From positions 1 through 64,000 of the IMG/VR virus record IMGVR_UViG_3300025288_000013: a stretch of 64,000 nt of DNA. One strand, given 5' to 3'. The stretch is from a virus. The notes under the pieces are model-generated. The model was not told where the DNA came from, did no database searches, and was given only the letters and a program-made list of their open reading frames with translations. Positions 4,001 through 47,773 of the stretch are shown one piece after another. How positions within the stretch are numbered: the first letter of the stretch is position 1; each line of letters opens with the position of its first letter. The position numbers and the translations under genes are program-made.

Positions 4001-5269
4001 TATTGATTCCAACAATTCTTTAACTTCTTCTTCTGATTTTGGTTCTTCGTTTTCAAACATGTGACCTAAACCAACCAATTCTGAAACAACTAAATCAGTC
4101 AGTTCAATGTCACCACCTTTGCTTTTTATATAATCTTCCAAATCTTTAACTTTTTTTATTTTGTCAGCCAATTCTTTGTCAGCCACAATTTCTTTTGCGA
4201 TTCCTTTTTCAACGCTATCAGTTGATCCAGTTTCAGTCAATTTTTTGTCTAAAAGTTCAATTTCATCAATTATTTTTTCCTCTTCAGCGGTTTTTTCCTC
4301 TTCAGGCATAGAGTTATTTTCAACCAATTTTTTGTATCTTGTTTTGACACGTTTTGCTTCAAAAAGCACTTTCATGTTTTTCACAGTTTTTGCCTTTCCT
4401 CTAATAGATTCAATCATTTCCAATAATGGATCATCTTCGTCTTCAACTATTTCCCAAGATTCCTTGTTTTCGTTATACATAACTTCAGTTTTAGTACCAT
4501 CGATGTCAATCTTAGAAAACCATGCACCGTTATTTTTATGGGGTTTTTCCAATAAATTGTGTTCAGCACCATTAATTATTATGGCTTCATTTCCATTATA
4601 TTCTGCTATATTCATTTCTGTTAATTTTTGGTTATCTATTTTATTTTTTGGTACAATTTTTACTGATTCTGTTAAATTTTCTCCGCTCTTAGCATCATAA
4701 ACTCTTAATGTTGTACCACCCATACCACCAGATCCAACAACATCATATGTATAAAGCGTATCAAGATAAGCCTCACTTGTATCTTCGTTTAAATATCCTA
4801 TTGCTCTTGAAGAAATTGAAAGAATCCCACCATTTTCAAGAACAACTATTAAATCATAACCACCGCCAATAAGTGTTGGTATTATGGTTAATCTAATATA
4901 ACAACAATCTTCTTCTTCATCATACCACAATTTATTTATGATACCACAAATTTCTTTTGTTTTTGCTATGAAATCATCTTCCTCGTTTGGGTGGTCGGCT
5001 GATGAAAATAATCTACCATCTTCGGCAAGTTTGGCTATTCTATCAAATTCTTCAAGATAGCTTTCTTTATTGTAAAATCTTTCATTTGACGACCACCCAT
5101 TTTTAAAATCAATACATTTTCCCTCAAGAACGACAGAATCCTTGTTCTTTAAGTTTGAATTGACTAAATTAGCTGATTCGATAAGTTTTTTAGTAACTTT
5201 CTTCTTGTCTACAACTTTTAAACTAGCACCATCTTCGAAAAGTATTGTAATTTTTTTTGATTTGCTCAT
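1082..5269 (-). CDS. Prohead protease (T4 gp21-like) fused to a ~1200-aa acidic scaffold/core polyprotein
   Basis: N-terminal ~190 aa has NERFY, SADHP, ISSRAIG and YTYDVV (gp21/U9 His-Ser-Asp motifs). The remainder is acidic with many LTE/LVE/LFE motifs and internal duplications. Confidence 0.85.
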   Translation of the reverse strand: MSKSKKITILFEDGASLKVVDKKKVTKKLIESANLVNSNLKNKDSVVLEGKCIDFKNGWSSNERFYNKESYLEEFDRIAKLAEDGRLFSSADHPNEEDDFIAKTKEICGIINKLWYDEEEDCCYIRLTIIPTLIGGGYDLIVVLENGGILSISSRAIGYLNEDTSEAYLDTLYTYDVVGSGGMGGTTLRVYDAKSGENLTESVKIVPKNKIDNQKLTEMNIAEYNGNEAIIINGAEHNLLEKPHKNNGAWFSKIDIDGTKTEVMYNENKESWEIVEDEDDPLLEMIESIRGKAKTVKNMKVLFEAKRVKTRYKKLVENNSMPEEEKTAEEEKIIDEIELLDKKLTETGSTDSVEKGIAKEIVADKELADKIKKVKDLEDYIKSKGGDIELTDLVVSELVGLGHMFENEEPKSEEEVKELLESIRLKAKKSNNTKALLETVKINRKYRKLVENDSMSEEEKETLQMEIVDELENLDKTELTESTIDKAYETIKKSKVGKTISELLASKDIENSKEFSFIDKNGNKVKIWSDPDGDDIYKDDSPGELELSDLLKLTENSMEDTIHINKPTHDIDKFKKFEELIDYLEKNFKNGVDFFIVANGDIKIKKENINKGLEKMIKLTENSNTLDKFLKKYGEDGEKIKKALRSEMDARDYDNENIEQMSSDEVLKYIKNAWNIDPDFYEFLFESVKLTENMKTIKVKSVKRLVESVSKNISKRGKAIRLFESEEIAKLDKTLEDVEINDTVEITETDENHVEIVGVNEEPTTYSVISETEVDEFGDQTLMVENEETGDILVVETEELTENANDTEILNLREKLSRMANAWRNALADGDNDKADKIRKDADGAKAELKKLGGLTDKTEKLFETDDESIKLTETVGDKIRIPKDKTLSDGTVVGSGEYTLSKYDGTNRILDKDGKSIKLSLDQFKELMDNKKLTENDFSSKLPTGVVKWADMEVREGKKAGIIDRISNTFAKSLQIISDKGEIVKGMDQDYVDLKDWVFDTYGKKVMIENECDMLTESKSAKDLAKDHDFTTDIEFFDYIEESLINGQRKQMNDLFKMMDKDSRKAFFDYAEENNFKSIKEISKSALTESKKVKSVKKLIESVSRSKSRRANAIKLFENEEMANLDDSIEEVETDEEVTMVETDENSIEIHGITDDQDNIDYTVISENEEMIMVENGETGEVYIVETEAEDSDTLLTESPEDIGSAIKLLAPIISTNGRHMSGLIEWFGVKGDGIKKLKNDYDKLVKDGLLSGGVPFNYEITQKGADFYRKNVNTLLTEQAEKIAMMESELERVSKFCETASKHIRLLEQESNNSLRNKTLRILKENADVVAVANASQKILDENPELEMLKEDSESLIKFGNLDKSNQKEILEAVGMLNDTEIVEVINEYGSKI

Positions 5270-5300
5270 TCTTGATTATATTTTCAGTATTTATTGTAGT

Positions 5301-5329
5301 TGTAACAATATTATTTGCCTATGGTTTTT
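5301..5329 (+). promoter_or_regulatory. TGTAACAA-N15-GTT promoter (HD hydrolase/clamp loader operon)
   Basis: One of 13 exact-spacing copies. Confidence 0.8.
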
Positions 5330-5349
5330 ATAAAACAAAATTCAATTCT

Positions 5350-5955
5350 ATGAATAAAAATGTTCTTAAGGGTATCCATAATACAAATCCTGATTTATGC
5401 AAGGATGGTGTAATAACATGTGGTAATCTTATGCCATATGATCTTATTAATTTTGATAAAAGTATGGTAGATATGGATTTTATGATAAATTCTGTATCAA
5501 AAATAAACAGATACAATGGTCACAACAAACACAAAAACGGTTATTCTGTGGCACAACATTCGCACATAATGGCTATGTCTGCTTTAATGTGCTATGGTGA
5601 CATAGAACTGGCAAGACAATGTTTGTTCCATGATTTACCAGAGGCATATGTTATGGACATGGTAAAACCCATGAAAAATCTAATGGGAAAAACATATGCT
5701 GATGTGGAAAAACATGTAGAAAAAGTTGTCTATAAATTTTTAGATTTACCAGAAAAATTGGATTGTAGAGTCAAAGAAATAGACAAAAATATGGCACAAT
5801 TCGAAATGAGTATAATTTTACATGATTCAGAAAATGTTTATGGTTCGTTTGATATTTGGTCAGCAAAAAAATCAAGAATGGAATTTTCAAGAATGGTAGT
5901 TATGTTACTTGAATTATGCAAATACCAAGATAAAAATATAGTTAATTTAAAATAA
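5350..5955 (+). CDS. HD-domain deoxynucleotide phosphohydrolase (YfdR/YfbR/DatZ-like)
   Basis: Motifs INRYNGH, YSVAQHS, LFHDLPEAYVMDMVKPMK and KEIDK. Start moved to ATG 5350, downstream of the TGTAACAA-N15-GTT site. Confidence 0.85.
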   Translation: MNKNVLKGIHNTNPDLCKDGVITCGNLMPYDLINFDKSMVDMDFMINSVSKINRYNGHNKHKNGYSVAQHSHIMAMSALMCYGDIELARQCLFHDLPEAYVMDMVKPMKNLMGKTYADVEKHVEKVVYKFLDLPEKLDCRVKEIDKNMAQFEMSIILHDSENVYGSFDIWSAKKSRMEFSRMVVMLLELCKYQDKNIVNLK

Positions 5956-10686: not shown

Positions 10687-11118
10687 ATGATAGACCTCTT
10701 TGGATTTGTTGATGCCCTATTCTGTAAAACTACCTGGAAAAATGTTTCTGACAATGATAAATACAAGCATTCTTACATGGTTAATAGATTTCTTTCCATA
10801 AGATACCCAATAGAGATAAATAATTGTCAAATAGTTGGACTTGGAAAAAAGAACACTATTCGATTAATGAACTATTGGCATCACATTTTGTCAAAAAGTT
10901 ATCAAAGACCCCCATTCTGGCTAAAGACAAAAAGTGGCACAAAGAAAACACAAAATGATTTATTAAAAGTGTTTGATAAAGAACATATAGCTGCTTACAG
11001 TAGAACTTATATGATCGATACCAAAACATTGAACGATTTGTGTCAATTTTTTCCAAAAGAACTTGTTGCTGATATGAAATCGTTTAATAAAAAAGACGAA
11101 TTAAAGAAAACAAAATGA
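10687..11118 (+). CDS. Clamp-loader small subunit (T4 gp62-like)
   Basis: YMVNRFLS and FWLK motifs with 143-aa size; middle-type promoter upstream. Confidence 0.55.
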   Translation: MIDLFGFVDALFCKTTWKNVSDNDKYKHSYMVNRFLSIRYPIEINNCQIVGLGKKNTIRLMNYWHHILSKSYQRPPFWLKTKSGTKKTQNDLLKVFDKEHIAAYSRTYMIDTKTLNDLCQFFPKELVADMKSFNKKDELKKTK

Positions 11119-12116
11119 ATTTAACAAGAAACGACATATTATTATTAGATAAGTCTGACTTACACGCCCACTTGGGTTCTATGGTCGGCAGCAAAAGGCT
11201 TTGGGAACTTGCACACGAACAAGGATTGAAATTACCAACAAAAGATTTTAGAAAATTCAATGATATAATAAGTGGGACTAATGATAGTGGATTAAATCAT
11301 AAAAAGTATTTGAATAAGTTCAATCTTACACAAAAAATACAAGGCTCACCATTAGCTGTTGAACAAAGTGTATTTAATGCCATTTCTGAATCTTATTTGA
11401 ATGATAACATAACACTTCTTGAATTAAGATTTAATCCATTCCTAAGAAACAGATCTGGGTTTTATGATGTTGACATGGTTATCTCCCATGCGTGTATTGG
11501 CTTGATTCGTGCAATGTCTATATATCCAGTAAAAGCTGGCATAATAATAAGCACCGATAGGTCGTTTGACAAAAAATTGACAAACATATTAGCCAAGAAA
11601 GCCATAAAATATAAAAACATTGGCGTAATTGGTTTTGATATGAGTGGAGGAAATGTTTCTGAATTTAACATAAAAGATTTCGAATCAGCATTTAAAATGG
11701 TGAAAGAAGCTGATATGGGTACAACAATCCACACGGCTGAAGTTGCTAACATATCTTTGGATGAAACCAAGTATATAGTTAAAAATTTTGATATCGATAG
11801 AATTGGTCATGGAATAAGAATCATTGAAGATATAAATTTGTTGACATACATAAGTTCAAAGAGGATACATTTAGAGATTTGTCCAACAAGTAATGTTATA
11901 ACAAAATGTGTAAATAATTATAAAGATTTTAATAAAATTTTGAACATTTTACAAATGAATCATGTTGATATTAGTATAAACACTGATGGGTGTGTATTTC
12001 TAAATACATCTGTTACAAATGAATATGACAAATTGCATGACATCGGTTTTGTTTATGACATTGAGCAGATAAAAGAATTAGAACAATCATCCATAAAAGC
12101 ATCATTTATAAGATGA
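11115..12116 (+). CDS. add: Adenosine/AMP deaminase family protein (atypical)
   Basis: DLHAH, ELRFNP, GFDMSG, IHTAE, RIGHG, HLEICPTSN and INTD motifs. Confidence 0.9.
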   Translation: MNLTRNDILLLDKSDLHAHLGSMVGSKRLWELAHEQGLKLPTKDFRKFNDIISGTNDSGLNHKKYLNKFNLTQKIQGSPLAVEQSVFNAISESYLNDNITLLELRFNPFLRNRSGFYDVDMVISHACIGLIRAMSIYPVKAGIIISTDRSFDKKLTNILAKKAIKYKNIGVIGFDMSGGNVSEFNIKDFESAFKMVKEADMGTTIHTAEVANISLDETKYIVKNFDIDRIGHGIRIIEDINLLTYISSKRIHLEICPTSNVITKCVNNYKDFNKILNILQMNHVDISINTDGCVFLNTSVTNEYDKLHDIGFVYDIEQIKELEQSSIKASFIR

Positions 12117-27611: not shown

Positions 27612-28263
27612 AACTATAAAACAAATAAAATTTTCTACCATTTATTATATGTTCAGATGATTTTCTCGTTGTATTTGATTTAATACAATCATACATGGCT
27701 ATTTTTTCTTTGTTATCAGATAAACTATCAAATTTATCATAAATATTTATAGAATGAGATTTGTCTTCCATGTTATCATAAAGATATTTACACAAATAAA
27801 AGAACTCCATATCATTAATGTCACAATTGTTTTTCGTGCCAGCATAAACGAATACGCCCATAGTGACAACACAATCATCCATTCTAAACCATTCTACAAA
27901 ATCGAGATAATCGAGATAATCTATAAAAGTTCTTATGCCATTCTCTTTTGTCTGCCCCCAAGTACCGTCACCAAATAATTCATATATTATTGTTTCACCA
28001 TCAGAGTCAACAACTATGTTGGTAGTGGTTATAATATCAAAATCTTCACTAACAGCCGTATTGTCAATAACACATATGTTATTAAAATCAAATTTTTTGG
28101 TTGTACTCACAACATTATATAAAATAAATCTATCATTATTAGACATTTTACCCATTGTTTTTTTGTCAAAGAATAATTGTAGATAATATGATATATAATC
28201 CAAATAAGGTTTATCATACCTTATCTCGTCAAGATTGTGATTATTTATATAATTTATTACCAA
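27607..28263 (-). CDS. Hypothetical protein
   Basis: Coupled to the polymerase gene. Confidence 0.55.
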   Translation of the reverse strand: MVINYINNHNLDEIRYDKPYLDYISYYLQLFFDKKTMGKMSNNDRFILYNVVSTTKKFDFNNICVIDNTAVSEDFDIITTTNIVVDSDGETIIYELFGDGTWGQTKENGIRTFIDYLDYLDFVEWFRMDDCVVTMGVFVYAGTKNNCDINDMEFFYLCKYLYDNMEDKSHSINIYDKFDSLSDNKEKIAMYDCIKSNTTRKSSEHIINGRKFYLFYSL

Positions 28264-31094
28264 AACAATGCTCCGTTTATATCGTTTAAATCATATTTTA
28301 GTTCATTAGCCCCATCGATAAGCTTAAGCATACTGTTTACAGGTGCTAATATCAATGTTTCAAATTGTTTTTTGTAATCTGCTTTTGGGTGTGTGTGTGG
28401 CAATCCTTCATTTATAGGAAAACCAAAAACCATTGTTTTTTTGGTACTACCCTTTACATAATAGACACCTATTCTGTCACCATTTGATATGAGTTTATAT
28501 TTTTCGCACCCAGTTTGTGTTTTTATCCAGTTATTATAATAACCAGCTGCTTTACTGTTCATTGGTGCGCCAGAAACAAATGTTAATGGGTTGTCTGATG
28601 ATATGTATTTGTAAACATCGTTGACCCTTTCAACAGCACATATGTCTTGTATATCACATTTATTGAACATTTCTTTTATTTGTTTTACTTCATCTATTAT
28701 GGGTTTCATCTTAAAATCAGATGTTTGTTCCATAATCTTTATTGTTATTTTTTTAAGACTTTCTCTAACAAATTTTGGCTTACTTCCTTGATTCATTTCA
28801 ACACCCTTTGGGTTAAGTTTTTCTAACAATTTGTAAAAAGAACCCTCTGACCAACTTGTGTTTTTTATATATTTTTTCTTTTTTATAAAAAGGATTGATG
28901 CATTTATTTGTTCCAATCCAAGCCCGAAACTTTCTTCACCATCTGGTTTTGTTCTGAACGCCCCCCATTTATCACAATACTTTTTCATGGATTGTATAGA
29001 GAATTCATTTAAAATGTGTTTATGTGTATCTAAACAAAATTCCCTCCTCCAGGAGTTTATCTCATTTGCCTTATCATTTAGCAGATTTGTTTTATCGGTT
29101 AAAGATAAACCAACTAATTTGTCTTCGTATTTTAAATCAGTATCCTTTTTGAATTTTATCCATTCTTCTGTGTTATTTATGACATTCTTCATGTGAACAA
29201 AAACAGAATCAGTATCAGCATAAACAATAACATCTTCGTCTAATTCTTTTGTCACGGTTATCCCCATTAATTTGTGTGATTCTTTGTCATTGTGCCACTT
29301 ATTTCTGAAGTAATCGTTGAACTCTGAAATTGTATATTTTAGTAAATCTCTACTTTGCGACGTGACACTACTTGCAACATCTATATTAAACAATGGAAAT
29401 CCAGACCAACCAAGAACACCATAAATAGAATTCATTATAATTTTCATGGCTGCAGCCTCATTACCATAAATCATAGACAGTTTTTCAAGCCTACTTATTT
29501 CTTCTGCCCTATTTATACTATAATTGTCGATATTTATGTGTTTTGGGTTATCAATTTTCGTCCCATTTTTGATAGCATTTAATTCGGCATCGATTTCCTT
29601 ATTCCATACCTTACGTTGAACCCTACCATTAAACAACGAGAATACCATTTTTCTTAAAGAAGAATCACCTTTATCTTTTAAATAAACTATTCCGTTTGGT
29701 GATATTATGTGTTTAGATTTATCTATTTTTATTTCCTTTTCGTCAGCATCAGATGCAAATGTTATGTAATCAGATGTTTTTCCAATCTTTGTGTCTATTC
29801 CATAATTAAAAGCCATCATACCAGATGGAAACATGGACGTAAAATCATATATCATAACATCATCGACCATACCTCTTTTAAGCGGTTCCAAAACATATCC
29901 GCCAGCGTATGTTGAATTTTCATTGTTGAATTTGTTTATGAATACTTGATTGTTTTCATAATACCAGTCACAAAACAACTTTTCGCACATCATACCAGCA
30001 AACAATGAATCATGTATGGGAACGCCAACAAAAGATGAAAGTGCCAAAGGCGTATCAAATGTGTTTGTTTTCCTGTCTATAAGTTGAACGAGAATGCTAT
30101 CAACGGCATTATAAAATAAAAATGTTTTATAATCATTTCTGTAAAGTTCGTCAAGAGTTGACGGGTGATGAACTTTATTGATACCAAGAACATTTTCAGC
30201 AACAGCATCAAGAGATAAAGCTGTTTTTAATGACCTATCAAATTTTCCATAAATTTCCATATAATCAAGAGTTGGTGAATGATATGGTACAGGAATGTTT
30301 ATCTTCTCTTGATTTTTTGCATATTTATCAGCAACACGTAAAACAAAATGGTTATTTGTTGGACTAGCCTTGTGCATAAACTTATAATTTCTTTTATATT
30401 GTTCAATATTATCAAGATCAAACCCATACATTGTTATACCACGATTTGACAAATATTGATCATCAAATTTCAAACTGTTCCAACCAAACAACATGTTTAT
30501 TTCATGTTTTCTTTTATTGTTCATAGCTGTCATAAGCCGCTCTTCTGATTCATACATTGTGTAATTAACAATATATGGTTCTTTCAACAAACTTTTGTCC
30601 TTTATCTTTTTGACGTGTTCATTTATCCTTAATTCTATGCCATTTATGTCACTCATTGATAATTGTTTCAATCCGAAGATTTCAACTAAATATCCCGTTA
30701 CAAAAACATTTGATAACACAGCATGTTTTGGGTTACCCGCATTTGGGAAAGAACCTATGGATTCAGTTTCTATATCGAAAAATGTTTTTTCTGGTTGATT
30801 CTGTTTATAAAACAACTCTTTTAGGTCTTTCGGTAAACCCTGAAGAAGTTCATATATTCTATATTTTGATAATTTTTTATATTTTTTAAGGGGTATTTTC
30901 CTTACAGAATTACCGTATGCGGATTTAAAATTTTTATCAGCATATGGGTTGTTTGGATTGCACTCTTCCCATTCGTACAACTCTTTTTTTGATATGTTTA
31001 ATTTTTTTAGCTGTTTTTTACCATTGTTGTCCCAATAAGAAATGAATATATGTGATGGCAGACCATCTACTAAAACTTGTTCTAAATGTATCAT
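28257..31094 (-). CDS. polB: Family B DNA polymerase (T4 gp43-like)
   Basis: Exonuclease motifs FDIET, GWNSLKFD and YNAVD; polymerase motifs YDFTSMFPS, KIIMNSIYG, YADTDS and KKKKY. Confidence 0.95.
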   Translation of the reverse strand: MIHLEQVLVDGLPSHIFISYWDNNGKKQLKKLNISKKELYEWEECNPNNPYADKNFKSAYGNSVRKIPLKKYKKLSKYRIYELLQGLPKDLKELFYKQNQPEKTFFDIETESIGSFPNAGNPKHAVLSNVFVTGYLVEIFGLKQLSMSDINGIELRINEHVKKIKDKSLLKEPYIVNYTMYESEERLMTAMNNKRKHEINMLFGWNSLKFDDQYLSNRGITMYGFDLDNIEQYKRNYKFMHKASPTNNHFVLRVADKYAKNQEKINIPVPYHSPTLDYMEIYGKFDRSLKTALSLDAVAENVLGINKVHHPSTLDELYRNDYKTFLFYNAVDSILVQLIDRKTNTFDTPLALSSFVGVPIHDSLFAGMMCEKLFCDWYYENNQVFINKFNNENSTYAGGYVLEPLKRGMVDDVMIYDFTSMFPSGMMAFNYGIDTKIGKTSDYITFASDADEKEIKIDKSKHIISPNGIVYLKDKGDSSLRKMVFSLFNGRVQRKVWNKEIDAELNAIKNGTKIDNPKHINIDNYSINRAEEISRLEKLSMIYGNEAAAMKIIMNSIYGVLGWSGFPLFNIDVASSVTSQSRDLLKYTISEFNDYFRNKWHNDKESHKLMGITVTKELDEDVIVYADTDSVFVHMKNVINNTEEWIKFKKDTDLKYEDKLVGLSLTDKTNLLNDKANEINSWRREFCLDTHKHILNEFSIQSMKKYCDKWGAFRTKPDGEESFGLGLEQINASILFIKKKKYIKNTSWSEGSFYKLLEKLNPKGVEMNQGSKPKFVRESLKKITIKIMEQTSDFKMKPIIDEVKQIKEMFNKCDIQDICAVERVNDVYKYISSDNPLTFVSGAPMNSKAAGYYNNWIKTQTGCEKYKLISNGDRIGVYYVKGSTKKTMVFGFPINEGLPHTHPKADYKKQFETLILAPVNSMLKLIDGANELKYDLNDINGALFW

Positions 31095-34024: not shown

Positions 34025-34351
34025 TTATTTTATTTTATATATAACATCTGATATAACATAATATGTTTTGTCTATCTTTATATGAGTAGGTATTATCAAT
34101 TCATTGTATATGACAACCACAACATTTTTTTGTTTTTCATCAGAATATTCATGTATTATCATTTTCTTTTGTTTGTTTTCTTTTGTAAATGAAGAAAAAA
34201 TAAAAAAAGATTGTTCTCCAAACAAATTTAATGTATCATTTGATACCACTATGCTGCCACCATCTGTCACATAGGTAACGTCATCTGTTTGTTGGGAAAA
34301 TAGCTGTGAGGAAATTATGAGTGTTGAAATTAATGTTATTATTTTTTTCAT
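34025..34351 (-). CDS. Secreted hypothetical protein
   Basis: Signal peptide MKKIITLISTLIISSQLFSQ; cleavage before Q is a Bacteroidetes-like trait. Confidence 0.55.
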   Translation of the reverse strand: MKKIITLISTLIISSQLFSQQTDDVTYVTDGGSIVVSNDTLNLFGEQSFFIFSSFTKENKQKKMIIHEYSDEKQKNVVVVIYNELIIPTHIKIDKTYYVISDVIYKIK

Positions 34352-34812
34352 AAAAATTCTGGGGGTTTATAATTTATGCTTTTTAATATTTTATGATCTG
34401 ACACCCTATATATAACATAGATATTGTGCTTTTCATTAAACCTATAATAAGTTTTTATACCATCTAAACCATATTTATTAACTGATTCAATGGCTTCATC
34501 TATGGTTTTACAAAATTTTGACATATTGCTTTTGTGGACTTTTTCCAGATCTCCAAAAACCATATCAGCTATACCTCTTTCGTGTGCGAAACCAATGATA
34601 ACATATATTAAATCAGCTATGGCATCTCTTTGTTCAATATGATTGTTATTTATTGTCGCCATTGATAATTCGAAAAATTCTTCTTCTATCAAGTCAAGTC
34701 TAAGATTTGTTCTTTCTTCTGACATGTCTGTCAATTTATTGGAAATTGGTTGTTCACCACATTCCATGAATTCTCTTACCATACTAATTAGTTTGTTCAT
34801 TTTATTATTCAA
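34348..34812 (-). CDS. MazG-like all-alpha NTP pyrophosphatase
   Basis: LIEEEFFEL, DAIADLIYV, VHKSNMSK and KILKS. Confidence 0.85.
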   Translation of the reverse strand: MNNKMNKLISMVREFMECGEQPISNKLTDMSEERTNLRLDLIEEEFFELSMATINNNHIEQRDAIADLIYVIIGFAHERGIADMVFGDLEKVHKSNMSKFCKTIDEAIESVNKYGLDGIKTYYRFNEKHNIYVIYRVSDHKILKSINYKPPEFL

Positions 34813-38556: not shown

Positions 38557-38585
38557 TGTAACAAGATTATTTATAAAATGTTTAT
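38557..38585 (+). promoter_or_regulatory. TGTAACAA-N15-GTT promoter (kinase)
   Basis: Exact motif and spacing. Confidence 0.8.
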
Positions 38586-38602: not shown

Positions 38603-39262
38603 ATGATAAAAAAAGAAAAAATAAGATTTGGTCTTGAAAGAATAACCAATACGCATTGTTTTATAAAAACTTATATAAATGGCGTTATAGAATATGCAAA
38701 TGTTTCTGATGGTATTTCTAGTGGGTTCAACTTTATACCAGAGGAAGAGTATGATACAATAAATCACTATTTTGTTGAAAAGAAAATTGTTCTTGTTGGC
38801 GGAGGTGCTTGTGGTAAGGATTATTACAAAGATTATATGATTGGCGTTGGGTTGATACCGGACATATCGTACACAACAAGACAAAAAAGACAAAAAGAAG
38901 TTGATGGAGTATCATATAATTATATATCAAGAGAAAAATTTGAAAGCATGATTGTTGGAGCAGAATTTTTGCAATGGAACAAATTTGGAAATGACAATTA
39001 TTATGGTACTACAAAAGAATCATTTAAAAGCAGTGATATCTTTATAATGACACCAAATGTTCTTAATTGTATGGATAACAGTGTTAGAGAAAAATTTTTT
39101 GTCATATTTTTCGACATAGACGAAGGCTTAAGAAGAGAGAGGCTTAAGAAGAGAGGTTATTCAGATAAAGATTGTGAAAAAAGATTTGATATAGATAAAA
39201 AAACCTTTGATAATTTTAATAGCTTTGATATGGTTGTAACAAATCCAAATTTTATACCTTAG
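38603..39262 (+). CDS. gmk: Guanylate kinase-like nucleotide monophosphate kinase
   Basis: GGGACGKD P-loop, SYTTRQKRQKEVDGVSYNYIS, NYYGT and ERLKKRG. Confidence 0.85.
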   Translation: MIKKEKIRFGLERITNTHCFIKTYINGVIEYANVSDGISSGFNFIPEEEYDTINHYFVEKKIVLVGGGACGKDYYKDYMIGVGLIPDISYTTRQKRQKEVDGVSYNYISREKFESMIVGAEFLQWNKFGNDNYYGTTKESFKSSDIFIMTPNVLNCMDNSVREKFFVIFFDIDEGLRRERLKKRGYSDKDCEKRFDIDKKTFDNFNSFDMVVTNPNFIP

Positions 39263-42549: not shown

Positions 42550-42583
42550 AAAAGCCTATGGTAAAAATATCATAGGCTTTTTT
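42550..42583 (+). terminator. Rho-independent terminator after HU
   Basis: AAAAGCCTATG-loop-CATAGGCTTTTTT. Confidence 0.8.
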
Positions 42584-42611
42584 GTAACAATCTATTCATA
42601 AAACAGTTTAT
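42583..42611 (+). promoter_or_regulatory. TGTAACAA-N15-GTT promoter (primase-exonuclease-GroES-purZ operon)
   Basis: Exact motif, immediately after the HU terminator. Confidence 0.8.
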
Positions 42612-43666: not shown

Positions 43667-44256
43667 AAAAAACAATAATATTCGACACAGAAACAACAGG
43701 CATTGTGCCAAAAGGTATGATGTACAAAGACCCAAATTATCCAAGATTATTACAACTTGCATGGGTAATATTAGATGAAGATGGGAACGAATTAGACAAA
43801 AGAAAAAACTATATAAAACCGAATGGGTTTTTAGTACCAAACACAGAATTTCACAAAGCAAATGGTTTGACACAAGAGGTGTGTGACAAAGGTGAAAACC
43901 CAATAGACGAATTGAATTTTTTGCTTGATGCTATTGAAAAATCAGAAGTTTTGTTGGCACATAATATGTTATTTGATTATTTTATAATAGCTTCAGAATT
44001 ACACAAAAACAACATAATTAGGAAAATAGAAAGGAAACCTAAGTATTGTACAATGATGTCAACAATAGATTTTTGCCAACTACCGTCACCATATGGAAGA
44101 GGATTTAAATTTCCTCGTTTGGAAGAACTTTATAAAAAATTGTTCAACGAAACTTTTGAAAATGCACATGATGCGTTTGCTGATGTAAAGGCTACCGCAA
44201 GATGCTATGTTGAATTAAATAGACTTGGTGTACCAATAAAAGAAGTATTAAAATGA
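43663..44256 (+). CDS. DEDDh 3'-5' exonuclease (DnaQ-like)
   Basis: FDTETTG, AHNMLFD and AHDAFADV. Confidence 0.9.
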   Translation: MKKTIIFDTETTGIVPKGMMYKDPNYPRLLQLAWVILDEDGNELDKRKNYIKPNGFLVPNTEFHKANGLTQEVCDKGENPIDELNFLLDAIEKSEVLLAHNMLFDYFIIASELHKNNIIRKIERKPKYCTMMSTIDFCQLPSPYGRGFKFPRLEELYKKLFNETFENAHDAFADVKATARCYVELNRLGVPIKEVLK

Positions 44257-44624
44257 GAGTACCAGGAACCAACATAATAGTTGAACAAAATAGCGATCCA
44301 AATAAGGTTATTGGTAATATCATATTTGATCATAGCAAGAAATATACAAAAAATATGGGTGTTGTTAAATACCTTAGTAAGTTTTGTGAAACAAATCGTG
44401 GAACAATTTGTGATATAAATATTGGCGATATAGTTCACTTTTCTGATGAAGCTGGTGTATATATTGACAAAAAAAACATGAAAAACATTCTATTGATAGA
44501 TTACAGAGAAATAATACTAATATCTGAATCAGAAGAAAACGAAATTTTTGTTGGCGAGGACATGAGATTTTATTTAGAAGAGGACATAGCAAACAGACAA
44601 ATGGAAAAAACATCTAATAATTAA
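44253..44624 (+). CDS. GroES-like co-chaperonin
   Basis: GVV...INIGDIVHFSDEAG...LLIDYREII. Confidence 0.55.
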   Translation: MRVPGTNIIVEQNSDPNKVIGNIIFDHSKKYTKNMGVVKYLSKFCETNRGTICDINIGDIVHFSDEAGVYIDKKNMKNILLIDYREIILISESEENEIFVGEDMRFYLEEDIANRQMEKTSNN

Positions 44625-44635
44625 ACAAACACAAA

Positions 44636-45919
44636 ATGAAACAAACAAAACGAACAAAAACGAACAATTTCTTTAAAAATGGTAAAATATCATTTGTAAT
44701 GGATGGTGCAGCTGGTAGTTCAGGCAAAAGCTTAATATCGTCGTATTTAGTGAAACATGCTAACAATGTTGATTTTATATTATCAGCCTTTACGCCAAAC
44801 GCAAGTCACACAGTTATAGATGATGATGGCAAAGAATTTGTTTTTAAAATTTTTGCAGGTGGTTCACAATACCACGAAAAACTAAAAGCTGTTTATATAA
44901 CAGATAATGCTGCAATAGAGTTAAAAACTCTGTGGAAAGAGATTGACTATCTTGGTATACCAAAAGAAAAGGTTAGAATTTCTCCAATGTGCATGATAGT
45001 TCAACAAATAGACATTGATTATGAAGCTGGACTGTGTGATCTTGATGGAAATTATTATTCAAAGAACGAGTTGAGGGATGGTACTGTTAAAACAGGGAGC
45101 ACTTGTTCTGGTAGTGGCACTGTTTTGGCTAAAAAGGTTCTTAGAAATAAGACACTGGTAAAAGCCAAAGATGTTGAAGAACTGAAAGAGTTTTTGTATG
45201 AAATGGATGAAATAATTTCAAGACTTGAAACAGGTGATAGAGGTTTAATGGAAATGGCACAAGGGTTTCCATTGTCAGTGAATCATCACATGTTTGCACC
45301 GCATACAACAAGTAGAAATGTTACAGTTACTAATGCTATGAATGATGCTATGATACCACCAAGATTTGCTGGTAACGTTTTAATCAACTTTAGAACGTAT
45401 CCAATCAAAATTCATAGTAATAAGTATAAATGTAACAAAACCGGTAAGTTTCTTACATGGGATGAGGTGAACAAGATGAAGACTGATATTGATTATGTTG
45501 TTGTTGAATCAAATTCTGGCGACTTTTATCCTGATCAAACAGAAATGAGTTGGGATCAAATAACCAAAGAATCTGGGTCTGAAAAGAAACTCATGGAATG
45601 CACAACACTTACAAAATTACCAAGAAGAATAGCTTCATTTAGTAAACAAAATCTTGTAGAGGCAATTAGATTCAATGACACAGGTGGTCAAATTTGGTTA
45701 TGTGTTAATTTTGTTAATTATGTTGTTTCTGGAATCTATGGTGAAAGGGAGTATTTTAACTTACACATTGACTTTGAAAAATATGAAAAACTTCACAATT
45801 GGATTCATGAAAACATAACCAGAGTTATATATGCAGACAATTCTATAGACGAAACAAGAGTTTCTCTTAAATATCTTGGTACAGGTGAAAAAATCGAAGA
45901 TAGAATAGAAATGCCATAA
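44636..45919 (+). CDS. purZ: PurZ-type N6-succino-2-amino-dAMP synthase (adenylosuccinate synthetase paralog)
   Basis: GSSGKS (Ser in place of the PurA catalytic Asp), PNASHT, GSTCSG, AQGF, TTSRNVT, RTYPIK, TTLTKLPRR (Leu at the PurA Arg303 position) and NFVNY (instead of TKLD). Confidence 0.85.
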   Translation: MKQTKRTKTNNFFKNGKISFVMDGAAGSSGKSLISSYLVKHANNVDFILSAFTPNASHTVIDDDGKEFVFKIFAGGSQYHEKLKAVYITDNAAIELKTLWKEIDYLGIPKEKVRISPMCMIVQQIDIDYEAGLCDLDGNYYSKNELRDGTVKTGSTCSGSGTVLAKKVLRNKTLVKAKDVEELKEFLYEMDEIISRLETGDRGLMEMAQGFPLSVNHHMFAPHTTSRNVTVTNAMNDAMIPPRFAGNVLINFRTYPIKIHSNKYKCNKTGKFLTWDEVNKMKTDIDYVVVESNSGDFYPDQTEMSWDQITKESGSEKKLMECTTLTKLPRRIASFSKQNLVEAIRFNDTGGQIWLCVNFVNYVVSGIYGEREYFNLHIDFEKYEKLHNWIHENITRVIYADNSIDETRVSLKYLGTGEKIEDRIEMP

Positions 45920-45979: not shown

Positions 45980-47773
45980 ATGAGCGTTGTTGTAAATGAG
46001 CGTTGGTCAACAAAAAGAATTGATGAACTTATAAAGAATTTCAATAAAATTGGCGTTATACCAGACAAGCATCCATTCTTTAATAGAAAAATAGGTAAAA
46101 GGAAAGGTGAAATCAACTTCAGTTGGACACAAGAAGAACTTTTAGAATTATCAAGATGTGAAAATGATATAGTTTACTTCGCAAATACTTTTTGTAAAAT
46201 TCTTACTGATGGTCACGGAAGACAATTTTTAAAAGATGTTGGCGGTATAAGAGATTATCAGGAAGATCTTTTAAAAATGTTTCAGGACAGCCAATTCAAC
46301 ATTGTTTTGGCTTCAAGACAAATTGGTAAGTCTATTACAGTTGCTATATATGTGTGTTGGTATTTGTTGTTTAATGATGATGCTAACATACTTCTTTTAT
46401 CAGAAACAGGTACAAAAGCAAAAGATTTACTTAAAAAGATAAAAGACATACAGGACAACTTACCATTTTACATGCAAGTTGGTTTATTATATGATTCAAC
46501 ACAACGAAGAATTTATGATAATGGTTGCACACTTATTAGTGAAAACACAACAGAAAATAGCGGTGTTTCTGGGTCGTATCAATTCGTTTATTGGGATGAA
46601 ATGGCATTATTAGACGCACCAACACAAGAAAAGATTTTTACTGGTGTATTCCCAACAATGGCAAGTTTTGGTAATAAAGCCAAGTTTATTATAACAAGCA
46701 CACCAAGAGGAAGAAACAATAAATTTCATAACATATGGAACGGTGCTACAAGTGAACTAGATTCACCAGAATATGTGCCGTTTTCATATGCAAAGGTCAT
46801 GTGGCATCAGGTCAAGGGTAGGGGTGAAGAATGGGAAAGAAAAGAAAGGAAAATAATGGGGGATGATGGTTTTGATAGAGAGTATGGATTATCTTTTGAT
46901 GCTGATGGCGATTTGCTTATAAGTGACGAAAATAAAAAGAAAATAAGCAGCAATTTTGTTAAATATGTAAGATATGAAAAAGATCACAAATTTTACAAAT
47001 TATTCAGTCATCACCCAGATTTCAAAGTATCCATGTTATCTGATCCAGAAAGAAAATTTCATATATCAATCGACATAGCTGGTGGAAAGAAGAGAGATTA
47101 TACTGTGTTTAATATATTTGAATTGAAATTCAAATCTTATGATGAAATAAAAGATATGGATTTTATCGTTGACGAAATGGACTTCTTTAAATTAGAACAA
47201 GTTGCTATAATAAGAAGTAATGTTATAAAAACAGAAATAATGGCTATGTACCTTTATGACTTTATCATAAAGTATATGATTCCACATAATATTAGAATAA
47301 CCATAGAAATTAATTTTGAGGGCAAGTTTTTTCTAAAGAATTTGTTTGATTATAAAGGTAGAAAGAATGAACTTAATAATTCAAGAGAAGATATGATTGT
47401 AGAATATCCACTGAACATGAATTTTGATAAAGACAATGCCATATATGAATTTGGAATAGTTCAAAACGAAAAAACTAAACAAGATACATGCAAGACCATA
47501 AACACGGTTATTCGTGACAACCATATTGTTATAAACCACAGTGTAACTGTTGAGGAGGGTTTGGCGTTTGGCTTGAACAAAAAAGGCAAATATCAAGGTT
47601 TATCAAAAAACGATGATTGCTTCATGACTGTTTTGAATATAGCAAATTATAAAAAAACAGATGAATATGAAGAGCAGGTTAATGAAATAATAAATAATTT
47701 GGATTCTTATCAATTAGAACTAATAAGCAAAATAGTTGGTGAAGATGATGAAGAAGATGATGACATATATTAA
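45980..47773 (+). CDS. Terminase large subunit (T4 gp17-like)
   Basis: DYQ, SRQIGKS, YWDEMA, ITSTPRG, SIDIAGG...DY and NDDCFM. Confidence 0.95.
   Translation: MSVVVNERWSTKRIDELIKNFNKIGVIPDKHPFFNRKIGKRKGEINFSWTQEELLELSRCENDIVYFANTFCKILTDGHGRQFLKDVGGIRDYQEDLLKMFQDSQFNIVLASRQIGKSITVAIYVCWYLLFNDDANILLLSETGTKAKDLLKKIKDIQDNLPFYMQVGLLYDSTQRRIYDNGCTLISENTTENSGVSGSYQFVYWDEMALLDAPTQEKIFTGVFPTMASFGNKAKFIITSTPRGRNNKFHNIWNGATSELDSPEYVPFSYAKVMWHQVKGRGEEWERKERKIMGDDGFDREYGLSFDADGDLLISDENKKKISSNFVKYVRYEKDHKFYKLFSHHPDFKVSMLSDPERKFHISIDIAGGKKRDYTVFNIFELKFKSYDEIKDMDFIVDEMDFFKLEQVAIIRSNVIKTEIMAMYLYDFIIKYMIPHNIRITIEINFEGKFFLKNLFDYKGRKNELNNSREDMIVEYPLNMNFDKDNAIYEFGIVQNEKTKQDTCKTINTVIRDNHIVINHSVTVEEGLAFGLNKKGKYQGLSKNDDCFMTVLNIANYKKTDEYEEQVNEIINNLDSYQLELISKIVGEDDEEDDDIY

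Follow-up and report, generated by a model that had tools for sequence, protein, structure and literature searches.

The locus analysed here lies in a window of 64,000 nt (positions 1 to 64,000 of IMG/VR record IMGVR_UViG_3300025288_000013). It raises a simple question: is its PurZ-like gene an active PurZ, a derivative with changed specificity, an ordinary PurA or a dead protein of this family? A sequence-only reading had described a deep-branching PurZ with several unusual residues, and suggested that it may have altered nucleotide or amine specificity, or produce a different modified purine. All the motifs on which this reading was based (GSSGK, TKLPRR, NF, DGAAGS, GKS, NASHT and EMAQG) are found where it had placed them. 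They are listed in Table 1, together with the genes discussed below. The residue equivalences come from an alignment of the ORF with E. coli PurA and phiVC8 PurZ.

Table 1. Position of the PurZ-like gene, its motifs and other features of the window.
Feature	Position	Strand	Remarks
HD_3/YfbR-like phosphohydrolase	5257..5955	+	Pfam; same Pfam families as DatZ
Adenosine-deaminase family protein	11115..12116	+	Pfam PF00962, E 3e-45; candidate sink for adenine nucleosides/nucleotides
Family B DNA polymerase	28257..31094	-	Pfam PF00136, PF03104; only replicative polymerase found
MazG/HisE-type NTP pyrophosphohydrolase	34348..34812	-	Pfam PRA-PH PF01503, E 1e-11; candidate for dGTP to dGMP
Guanylate kinase homologue	38603..39262	+	Pfam PF00625, E 6e-15; matches PDB guanylate kinases; promoter-like motif at 38557; candidate for dZMP to dZDP
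Promoter-like motif, TGTAACAA-N15-GTT	42583..42608	+	Heads the block primase, exonuclease, Cpn10-like, PurZ-like, TerL
PurZ-like ORF	44636..45919	+	427 aa
D23-G-A-A-G-S	44702-44719	+
P-loop G27-S28-S29-G30-K31-S32	44714..44731	+	S28 replaces PurA Asp13 (phiVC8 S14)
N55-A-S57-H58-T59	44798..44812	+	H58 equivalent to catalytic His41; S57 for Gly40
E206-M-A-Q209-G210	45251..45265	+	EGAQG motif; Q209 equivalent to Gln224
K258-I259 and insert of about 30 residues (aa 260-292)	45407..45511	+	I259 equivalent to Val273 / S-2L V241
T323-T-L-T326-K-L328-P-R330-R331	45602..45628	+	Aspartate/ribose loop; L328 for PurA Arg303 (phiVC8 K267); T326-K-L-P-R-R at 45611-45628
N358-F359-V-N361-Y362	45707..45721	+	ATP-type base pocket; phiVC8 N294-F295-C-N297-Y298; F359/N361 equivalent to PurA Lys331/Asp333; N358-F at 45707-45712
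Large terminase (TerL)	45980..47773	+	Pfam Terminase_6N; directly downstream of the PurZ-like gene

Homology, fold and conserved residues

The ORF is open and intact. It matches Pfam family PF00709 (E 4e-12), and a sequence search of the PDB finds phiVC8 PurZ (E 1.6e-22). The AF2 model of the protein has a confident fold (pLDDT 91.6), which matches known PurZ in Foldseek (E 1e-27, target TM 0.82). Both by sequence and by fold, phiVC8 and S-2L PurZ rank above archaeal PurA, PurZ0 and bacterial PurA in the PDB. The top NCBIfam model is also that of PurZ, NF038379, although its score of 140 bits is under the 300-bit cut-off; MaF61, a Flavobacterium phage of the same clade, and three further clade members score 122–145 bits. 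PurA models remain far under their cut-offs: 49 bits for TIGR00184 (cut-off 395.55) and 103 bits for the archaeal-type NF003295 (cut-off 368). Judged by these matches, the ORF is an adenylosuccinate-synthetase homologue, and it most likely codes for a working PurZ, the enzyme which opens the synthesis of 2-aminoadenine (Z) for DNA.

The query shares the overall fold and presumably the two-step mechanism with PurA, both that of E. coli and the short archaeal one of Pyrococcus horikoshii, at an identity of only 13–22%. Its catalytic core is retained (K31, N55, H58, T156, R170, Q209, T225 and R330), with the equivalents of PurA Lys16, Asn38, His41, Thr129, Arg143, Gln224, Thr239 and Arg305 conserved. 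The residues which discriminate PurZ are also retained: S28 (S14), T323 (T262), P256, Y298, W306, S334, F359, N361 and Y362. On the other hand, Asp13 of PurA, with a conservation of 99% among true PurA according to the literature, and its GTP-specific Lys331 and Asp333 are Ser, Phe and Asn in the query. The roles of phiVC8 F295, N297 and Y298 in the ATP pocket are known from the PurZ structure literature. At the level of sequence, two residues suggest a preference for deoxyribose: Leu328 takes the place of the Arg303 which holds the 2'-OH, while Ile259, which is branched and aliphatic, aligns with Val273 (V241 in S-2L), the neighbour of sugar carbon C2' (PMC8342488).

In order to judge how unusual the query is, we compared it with 93 other PurZ-like representatives, while its own clade was sampled as 36 or 120 members. 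S28 is Ser in all 120 family members and in 91 of the 93 others. H58, Q209 and G210 are invariant in the family, the T323-R331 loop is nearly so, and the N-F-x-N-Y pocket is well kept (F 36/36, N 32/36, Y 27/36). The earlier statement that usually invariant positions differ is correct for the Gly of NAGHT, position 57 (83/93 Gly and 9/93 Ser in the others, 77 Ser and 43 Gly in the family), for the aromatic residue before G-S, replaced by Ala26 (F, W or Y in 87/93), for the Gln preceding it (78/93) and for the last Gly of GKG (91/93), where Ser is found in just 4/36 members of the query's clade. It is not correct for the Gly of EGAQG (position 207), which is Gly in just 26/93 other sequences and I, L, V or M in the family. 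Position 259 is Ile in 34/36 family members and Val in 92/93 others. The insert which follows it has about 30 residues in the clade, compared with 12–13 in other PurZ and about one in E. coli, and exceeds 200 residues in some clade members.

Whether such substitutions are common in PurZ had been proposed as a check, and the answer is divided. The change in EGAQG is common, and TKLPRR is also found in the PurZ of Salmonella phage PMBT28 (TKLTRR in that of SH-Ab 15497). In contrast, the truly clade-specific changes in these alignments are Ala26 in place of an aromatic residue, the Ser of NASHT, Ile instead of Val next to C2' and the insert of about 30 residues. MaF61 keeps Phe at the position of Ala26, though it belongs to the same clade. 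Ala26, Ile259 and the insert line the dGMP pocket, and may tune its specificity. In phiVC8 the aromatic residue, F12, reportedly helps to make room for the 2-amino group of the purine; in S-2L PurZ only its backbone atoms form the pocket.

A long-form PurZ clade

Clustered at 90% identity, the proteins of this clade, about 400–480 aa long, make up no fewer than 243 clusters. These clusters are 38–71% identical and have about 50 invariant positions in common, which points to purifying selection and would favour an active PurZ. Some members contain inteins inside the gene. The prokaryote genome scan gave one clade-level match and no archaeal PurA, so the trees (IQ-TREE, LG+G4, 81 rows) were rooted on E. 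coli PurA alone, with archaeal PurA and S-2L left out. With this root, the query's clade is nested inside an ATP-type PurZ crown of 72 rows (support 100/89). Within the crown, a 65-row group (93/92) contains it together with phiVC8, SH-Ab 15497 and PMBT28; support is 94/95 for the family and 100/99 for the long clade. We take the PMBT28 enzyme as a PurZ because of its GSTGKG and NFCNY motifs and a bioRxiv paper. PurZ0-like sequences are basal to the crown and form a clade of their own (98/86), with the query outside. Contrary to the sequence-only reading, the query is thus not deep-branching in this tree. Its assignment to PurZ and not to PurA agrees with the top matches, S28 and the ATP-type pocket, and its lineage is distinct and well supported. 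Both bracketing groups, ATP-type PurZ and PurZ0, are dGMP enzymes in the literature.

PurZ0 (the GTP-using enzyme of Arthrobacter and Gordonia phages, Wayne and Ghobes among them; PDB 7vf6) has Ser at the Asp13 position and a short archaeal-type PurA fold, as the query does. Nevertheless, the P-loop is G-S-E-G-K-G in PurZ0-like sequences, and their GTP motif (x-x-x-D) still has its Asp, whereas the query has G-S-S-G-K-S and N-F-V-N. The resemblance to known PurZ is closer: the same fold, Ser for Asp13, an ATP-type N-F-x-N-Y, the loss of Arg303, the catalytic His, Gln, Lys and Arg, the same crown clade and a TKLPRR identical to that of PMBT28. The query differs from these enzymes in its low identity (24–30%), in its length (427 aa instead of 343–387), and in a Ser for Thr after G-S, besides the clade-specific changes. 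The query belongs to a large long-form branch, hitherto undescribed, carried by big T4-like phages.

Gene context and candidate pathway partners

The genome has 30% G+C. The TGTAACAA-N15-GTT motif occurs 18 times in the window, where 4.1 occurrences would be expected, and 18 or more copies were found in 0/100 shuffles. A copy precedes each of the genes for guanylate kinase, the PRA-PH/MazG-like protein, adenosine deaminase, the HD_3 protein and PolB; the true start of the HD_3 gene is probably downstream of the copy at 5301. The HD_3 protein was considered as a DatZ, a name we do not give it: its top PDB match is Atu1052, and its closest phage homologues are generic 5'-deoxynucleotidases of phages which do not have Z. 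The Pfam MazG model PF03819 matches no gene in the contig, where the pyrophosphohydrolase is found under PRA-PH only. A megablast of positions 40–60 kb of the window against isolate phages gave no match. The stretch is present in Logan contigs of groundwater and aquifer metagenomes from 2017, with small shares elsewhere.

The carriers of this gene family are large PolB phages of 110–250 kb, and the sole isolate is MaF61, whose paper reports no biochemistry or DNA composition. This phage, whose host is Flavobacterium sp. B330, also has the PurZ-like gene next to TerL (ORF141-ORF142), and it encodes PurB (ORF149) and guanylate kinase (ORF95). TerL is 0.5–8 kb from the PurZ-like gene in a subset of relatives. 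Among family-bearing records, PurB and guanylate kinase are each found in 11/29 (3/5 and 4/5 of the complete ones), adenosine deaminase and MazG each in 9/18, and HD_3 in 5/18. In a complete 150-kb phage, the PurZ-like gene, PurB and MazG are all located inside 6 kb. As a contrast, 50,697 isolate phage records contain 14 PurB, 25 guanylate kinases and 5 adenosine deaminases; the carriers, in contrast, are from IMG/VR and not from this isolate collection, whose base rates were used because a single-protein TerL scan for PurZ-negative relatives gave one locus only. All 5 genomes tested have PolB and lack PolA. Searches of five genomes for DUF550, NDK and PolA were negative, and the DUF550 model did not match any control genome either, which makes the DUF550 negative a weak one.

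Known PurZ carriers are 40–60-kb PolA or PrimPol phages of Pseudomonadota, Cyanobacteriota and Actinomycetota, different from the phages of this clade, many of which have genes for PurB and guanylate kinase themselves. Of the usual Z-cluster (MazZ, PurZ and DatZ, with DpoZ), this genome has a PurZ-type enzyme and candidate counterparts of MazZ and DatZ, namely an NTP pyrophosphohydrolase of the all-alpha type and an HD_3/YfbR-like hydrolase, and some relatives do have PurZ-like, PurB and MazG genes in a cluster. In the query genome these genes are scattered, the polymerase is a PolB and not DpoZ or PrimPol, and no orthology of the partners with MazZ or DatZ could be demonstrated. Guanylate kinase, adenosine deaminase and, in relatives, a phage PurB are additional; PurB and GMP kinase are described as host functions in known Z phages.

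Explanations for the PurZ-like gene

The explanation we consider probable is an active long-form PurZ-type N6-succino-2-amino-2'-deoxyadenylate synthase, which would feed a largely phage-encoded dZTP route. The substrates we infer are dGMP, perhaps supplied by the MazG/HisE-type pyrophosphohydrolase, and L-aspartate: O6 of dGMP would be phosphorylated with ATP or dATP, and aspartate would then displace the phosphate to give dSMP. Aspartate is the expected amine, and a succinyl-purine nucleotide the expected product, because PurB accompanies the gene in many relatives. A phage or host PurB would convert dSMP to dZMP, the phage guanylate kinase would produce dZDP (GMP kinase acts on dZMP, as described in a bioRxiv paper) and a host nucleoside-diphosphate kinase would give dZTP. 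The HD_3 hydrolase and the adenosine deaminase would deplete adenine deoxynucleotides. The family B polymerase would then place Z opposite T, and Z would be expected in virion DNA. Several observations count against this explanation: the equivalent of phiVC8 F12 is Ala, a large insert lies beside the nucleotide site, and the PurZ model score is less than half its cut-off. Exclusion of dATP is also harder to account for, since a DpoZ-type PolA, DUF550 and a clear DatZ orthologue were searched for and not found, and PurB was not found in the 110-kb contig, which is itself 64% complete.

The residues which differ could instead reflect a changed specificity, for another 6-oxopurine nucleotide (dIMP, dXMP, GMP or a substituted dGMP) or another amine, leading to a modified purine other than Z. 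Ala next to the purine 2-position, Ile at the sugar contact, Ser beside the catalytic His, the long insert and the low PurZ model score all fit this idea. Nevertheless, the Ser which confers selectivity for dGMP is conserved, as is every other contact to base, sugar or phosphate named in the PurZ structure papers, the aromatic residue contributes nothing but backbone atoms to the pocket of S-2L PurZ and is still Phe in MaF61, several of the odd residues are common variants, PurB implies a succinyl adduct and a guanylate kinase suits a guanine-like or Z-like monophosphate. We thus regard the other amine or purine of the sequence-only reading as rather unlikely, and we give the same low probability to a PurZ-derived enzyme which, with the phage PurB, makes a non-Z purine deoxynucleotide, or Z plus a further derivative.

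An ordinary supply of adenylate appears improbable. A PurA-like enzyme acting on IMP or dIMP might, with PurB, boost AMP and dAMP for a 70% A+T genome, or run a purine-nucleotide cycle together with the deaminase. This agrees with a fold and a Pfam family shared with PurA, with the company of PurB and deaminase and with the base composition. Against it are the Ser found at Asp13 throughout the family, the ATP-type F/N pair, the Leu for Arg303, the poor PurA model scores (49 bits, with cut-offs near 400), the nesting of the clade among PurZ sequences and the type of the accompanying kinase, which acts on guanylate and not on adenylate by its family. It is very improbable that the protein is catalytically dead, or merely structural or regulatory. 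Some residues which PurA conserves have changed (Gly40 to Ser, the EGAQG Gly to Met, GKG to GKS), but these positions also vary in other PurZ-like proteins, while all catalytic and ligand-binding residues, the invariant positions of a large family and a confident fold are kept, and inteins are typical of functionally important genes.

If the clade is active as a PurZ, the range of 2-aminoadenine DNA would widen to include large T4-like phages replicated by PolB, among them a Flavobacterium phage in culture and numerous uncultured relatives. Literature hosts of Z-genome phages are Pseudomonadota, Cyanobacteriota and Actinomycetota, with polymerases of the PolA-type DpoZ or PrimPol. The dZTP route of these phages would be largely self-encoded, with MazG-type, PurZ, PurB and guanylate kinase enzymes, while a deaminase and an HD hydrolase would clear adenine. 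Z would then represent about a third of all bases in a genome with 30% G+C. The prediction is directly testable, MaF61 and its host being in culture, and the enzymes would be new parts for making Z-DNA.

The PurZ-like protein and its active site

The window (30% G+C, phage DNA) covers the opening 64 kb of an IMG/VR virus contig of 110,222 bp, which is 64% complete according to CheckV. The PurZ-like gene codes without interruption for 427 residues, and all the motifs named in the sequence-only reading occur in it at the positions given there. The protein is assigned to the adenylosuccinate synthetases by Pfam (PF00709, E 4e-12). Its top sequence match in PDB is phiVC8 PurZ (E 1.6e-22), followed by S-2L PurZ (8e-17) and the short Pyrococcus horikoshii PurA (7e-14), with E. 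coli PurA far lower (7e-4). AlphaFold2, given an alignment of 40 family sequences, yields a confident model (pLDDT 91.6, pTM 0.90). The Foldseek ranking of matches is almost identical: phiVC8 PurZ/DgsS (E 1e-27, target TM 0.82), S-2L PurZ, P. horikoshii PurA, PurZ0, and then bacterial and eukaryotic PurA. The curated NCBI PurZ model gives the best score, yet its 140 bits fall short of the cut-off (300 bits); PurA models reach 49–103 bits, with cut-offs of 368–395.

Residues were compared in an alignment that includes both E. coli PurA and phiVC8 PurZ, the numbering of the latter being verified against the literature. The catalytic core common to PurA and PurZ is unbroken: E. coli Lys16, Asn38, His41, Thr129, Arg143, Gln224, Thr239 and Arg305 correspond to K31, N55, H58, T156, R170, Q209, T225 and R330. 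Most residues which separate PurZ from PurA in the literature are also found: S28 in place of PurA Asp13 (phiVC8 S14), T323 (T262), P256 (P233), Y298 (Y244), W306 (W252) and S334 (S273). In the ATP-adenine pocket, F359, N361 and Y362 are equivalent to phiVC8 F295, N297 and Y298. Arg303, which contacts the ribose 2'-OH in PurA, is replaced by Leu, as in PMBT28 PurZ (TKLPRR) and SH-Ab 15497 PurZ (TKLTRR). PurZ has a Val pressing on the sugar C2' (PMC8342488); here it is Ile.

Coordinates of features in the window
Feature	Position	Strand	Remark
PurZ-like gene	44636-45919	+	427 residues
D-G-A-A-G-S	44702-44719	+	motif check
G27-S-S-G-K	from 44714	+	motif check
N-A-S-H-T	44798-44812	+	motif check
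E-M-A-Q-G	45251-45265	+	motif check
T-K-L-P-R-R	45611-45628	+	motif check
N-F	45707-45712	+	motif check
HD_3/YfbR-like protein	5257-5955		orthologue of MaF61 HD protein
Adenosine-deaminase family protein	11115-12116	+	
PolB	28257-31094		orthologue of MaF61 PolB
PRA-PH/MazG-HisE-type pyrophosphohydrolase	34348-34812		
Guanylate kinase	38603-39262		orthologue of MaF61 kinase
Cpn10/GroES-like gene	44253-44624	+	Pfam E 2e-5; directly upstream of PurZ-like gene
TGTAACAA-N15-GTT, example sites	5301, 10642, 31121(-), 35657(-), 38557, 40741, 42147, 42583, 47774		promoter-like motif

A long-form clade among ATP-type enzymes

Trees of PurZ-like sequences obtained with FastTree (135 sequences) and IQ-TREE (81 rows, LG+G4; support as ultrafast bootstrap/SH-aLRT) are concordant. 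With E. coli PurA alone as root, archaeal PurA and S-2L left out, and sampling biased to relatives of the window protein, the PurZ0-like sequences are basal, as one group (98/86) that has a G-S-E-G-K-G P-loop and retains the GTP-motif Asp. One crown (100/89) takes in every ATP-type sequence. A 65-row group inside it (93/92) contains the phiVC8, SH-Ab 15497 and PMBT28 PurZ together with a clade of long-form proteins (100/99), which includes the family of the window protein (94/95). The lineage is therefore separate and well supported, but the deep branching proposed from the sequence is not supported: the long-form clade is nested in the ATP-type crown. The groups which bracket it are described in the literature as dGMP-using enzymes. 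The dutZ/dmtZ section of PMC12884076 contains a statement opposite to the motifs (Asp kept in PurZ0-like sequences, N-F-x-N in PurZ) and to a bioRxiv paper, probably a slip.

Close relatives form at least 243 clusters at 90% identity among 5.8 billion proteins searched, with 400–480 aa and 38–71% identity. Among 1.8 billion representatives, a graded series leads from them to ordinary PurZ-like proteins of 340–390 aa. About 50 positions are invariant within the clade, catalytic and PurZ-type residues included.

Residues in 36 clade members and 93 other PurZ-like representatives
Position	Clade	Others	Distribution
Residue preceding G-S	Ala 28/36	F/W/Y 87/93	clade-special
Gln ahead of it	not Gln	Gln 78/93	clade-special
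Residue following G-S	Ser 33/36	Thr or Glu 76/93	clade-special
NAGHT Gly	Ser 24/36	Gly 83/93	clade-special
Sugar-contact residue	Ile 34/36	Val 92/93	clade-special
Insert following sugar contact	~30 residues	12-13; E. coli ~1	clade-special
GKG last residue	Ser 4/36	Gly 91/93	sub-branch of the window protein
EGAQG Gly	I/L/V/M	Gly only 26/93	not clade-special

Several usually invariant positions had been said to differ. This is correct for the aromatic residue and Gln before G-S and for the NAGHT Gly; the EGAQG Gly is not generally conserved, and GKS is limited to a sub-branch. Judged by this comparison of sequences, the active site is conserved at the positions for chemistry and altered only at a few second-shell and pocket-lining places.

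Length variation is concentrated in the insert after the Ile, from about 30 residues in the window protein to over 200 in some relatives. In P0027, P0055, P0071 and P0112 (551–666 aa) the extra part has no Pfam match. Three others (P0122, P0126 and P0138, 790–816 aa) carry inteins (Hint and LAGLIDADG homing endonuclease) at two distinct sites, near the G-S-T156 and T225-S-R synthetase motifs; the PurZ literature covered does not mention inteins. The only clade-level match among 185,579 prokaryote genomes is in a Pirellulales MAG (441-kb contig, L093, 114437-135369; 42% identity over residues 9-308 only); a prophage, phage DNA placed in the wrong bin or a gene that is interrupted might account for it.

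Partner genes

The closest isolate is Flavobacterium phage MaF61, a myovirus of 167.8 kb from a Finnish lake. It alone belongs to the clade among the 187 matches in 50,697 records of isolate phages. ORF141 of MaF61 shares 43% identity with the window protein, and in both phages the large terminase gene follows directly downstream. Neither this gene nor the DNA chemistry is discussed in the MaF61 paper. MaF61 also encodes adenylosuccinate lyase (PurB; Lyase_1 and ASL_C), guanylate kinase, a MazG-like protein, an HD_3/YfbR-like hydrolase and PolB. Orthology was not detected between the MazG-type proteins of the two phages, and the nearest phage homologues of the HD protein are generic deoxynucleotidases. 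PurB was not found on the 64% complete contig of the window. MaF61 encodes Cpn10-like and Cpn60-like chaperonins as well, and its ORF92 (L005:16474-17625) is a thymidylate-synthase homologue of 384 aa, longer than the usual ThyA, in which the Pfam model is matched in two stretches.

Partner genes in IMG/VR records with the clade gene and MaF61, and in isolate phage records, where part of the matches resemble host fragments
Gene	Family-bearing records	Records >=90% complete	Isolate phage records
PurB	11/29	3/5	14/50,697
Guanylate kinase	11/29	4/5	25/50,697
Adenosine deaminase	9/18	3/5	5/50,697
MazG	9/18	3/5	
HD_3	5/18	3/5	

In one complete phage genome of 150 kb, which has terminal repeats, the PurZ-like gene, PurB and MazG all fall inside 6 kb. 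PolB is present in all five genomes tested; PolA, NDK and DUF550 were found in none of the five, and none of the known kinds of Z-selective polymerase was found. In two 150-kb IMG/VR phages (G009 and G011, via loci L037 and L042) the PolB matches lie in two far-apart open frames of about 410–420 and 517–527 aa, which suggests a split PolB.

The promoter-like motif TGTAACAA-N15-GTT has 18 copies in the window, a four-fold excess over the 4.1 expected. It fronts replication and nucleotide-metabolism genes, namely those for the HD protein, PolB and the kinase, as well as the deaminase, MazG-type and primase-exonuclease-Cpn10-PurZ-terminase blocks.

A predicted phage-encoded pathway

The most economical reading of these sequences is that the protein would be a functional PurZ, acting in a dZTP pathway encoded largely by the phage. 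Among the contextual arguments, the rare PurB lyase, which accompanies the gene in many relatives, weighs most: it implies that the synthetase product should be a succinyl-purine nucleotide made with aspartate. Guanylate kinase would fit the step following the lyase. This reading is weakened by the generic nature of the nearest phage homologues of the HD protein, by the MazG-type proteins not being detectably orthologous, by the negative result for a known Z-selective polymerase and by the missing PurB on the incomplete contig. Published work assigns the conversion of dSMP to dZTP to PurB and GMP kinase of the host, and describes HD_3/YfbR-like domains in DatZ. The changes in the pocket could instead shift the substrate, as the sequence-only reading proposed. 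The protein could also be a PurA supplying AMP; the Ser found in all members, the ATP-type pocket, the absence of Arg303, the position in the tree and the kinase type are all against it.

As a functional PurZ, the protein would extend what has been described. In the literature covered, the hosts named for PurZ phages are Pseudomonadota, Cyanobacteriota and Actinomycetota, the polymerases are PolA-type DpoZ or PrimPol, and PurB and GMP kinase are supplied by the host. Bacteroidota phages, PolB replicases and phage PurB are not mentioned there. What is new is a predicted clade of long-form PurZ carried by large PolB phages, whose self-encoded pathway would be more complete. MaF61 is in culture: The prediction is open to direct testing.
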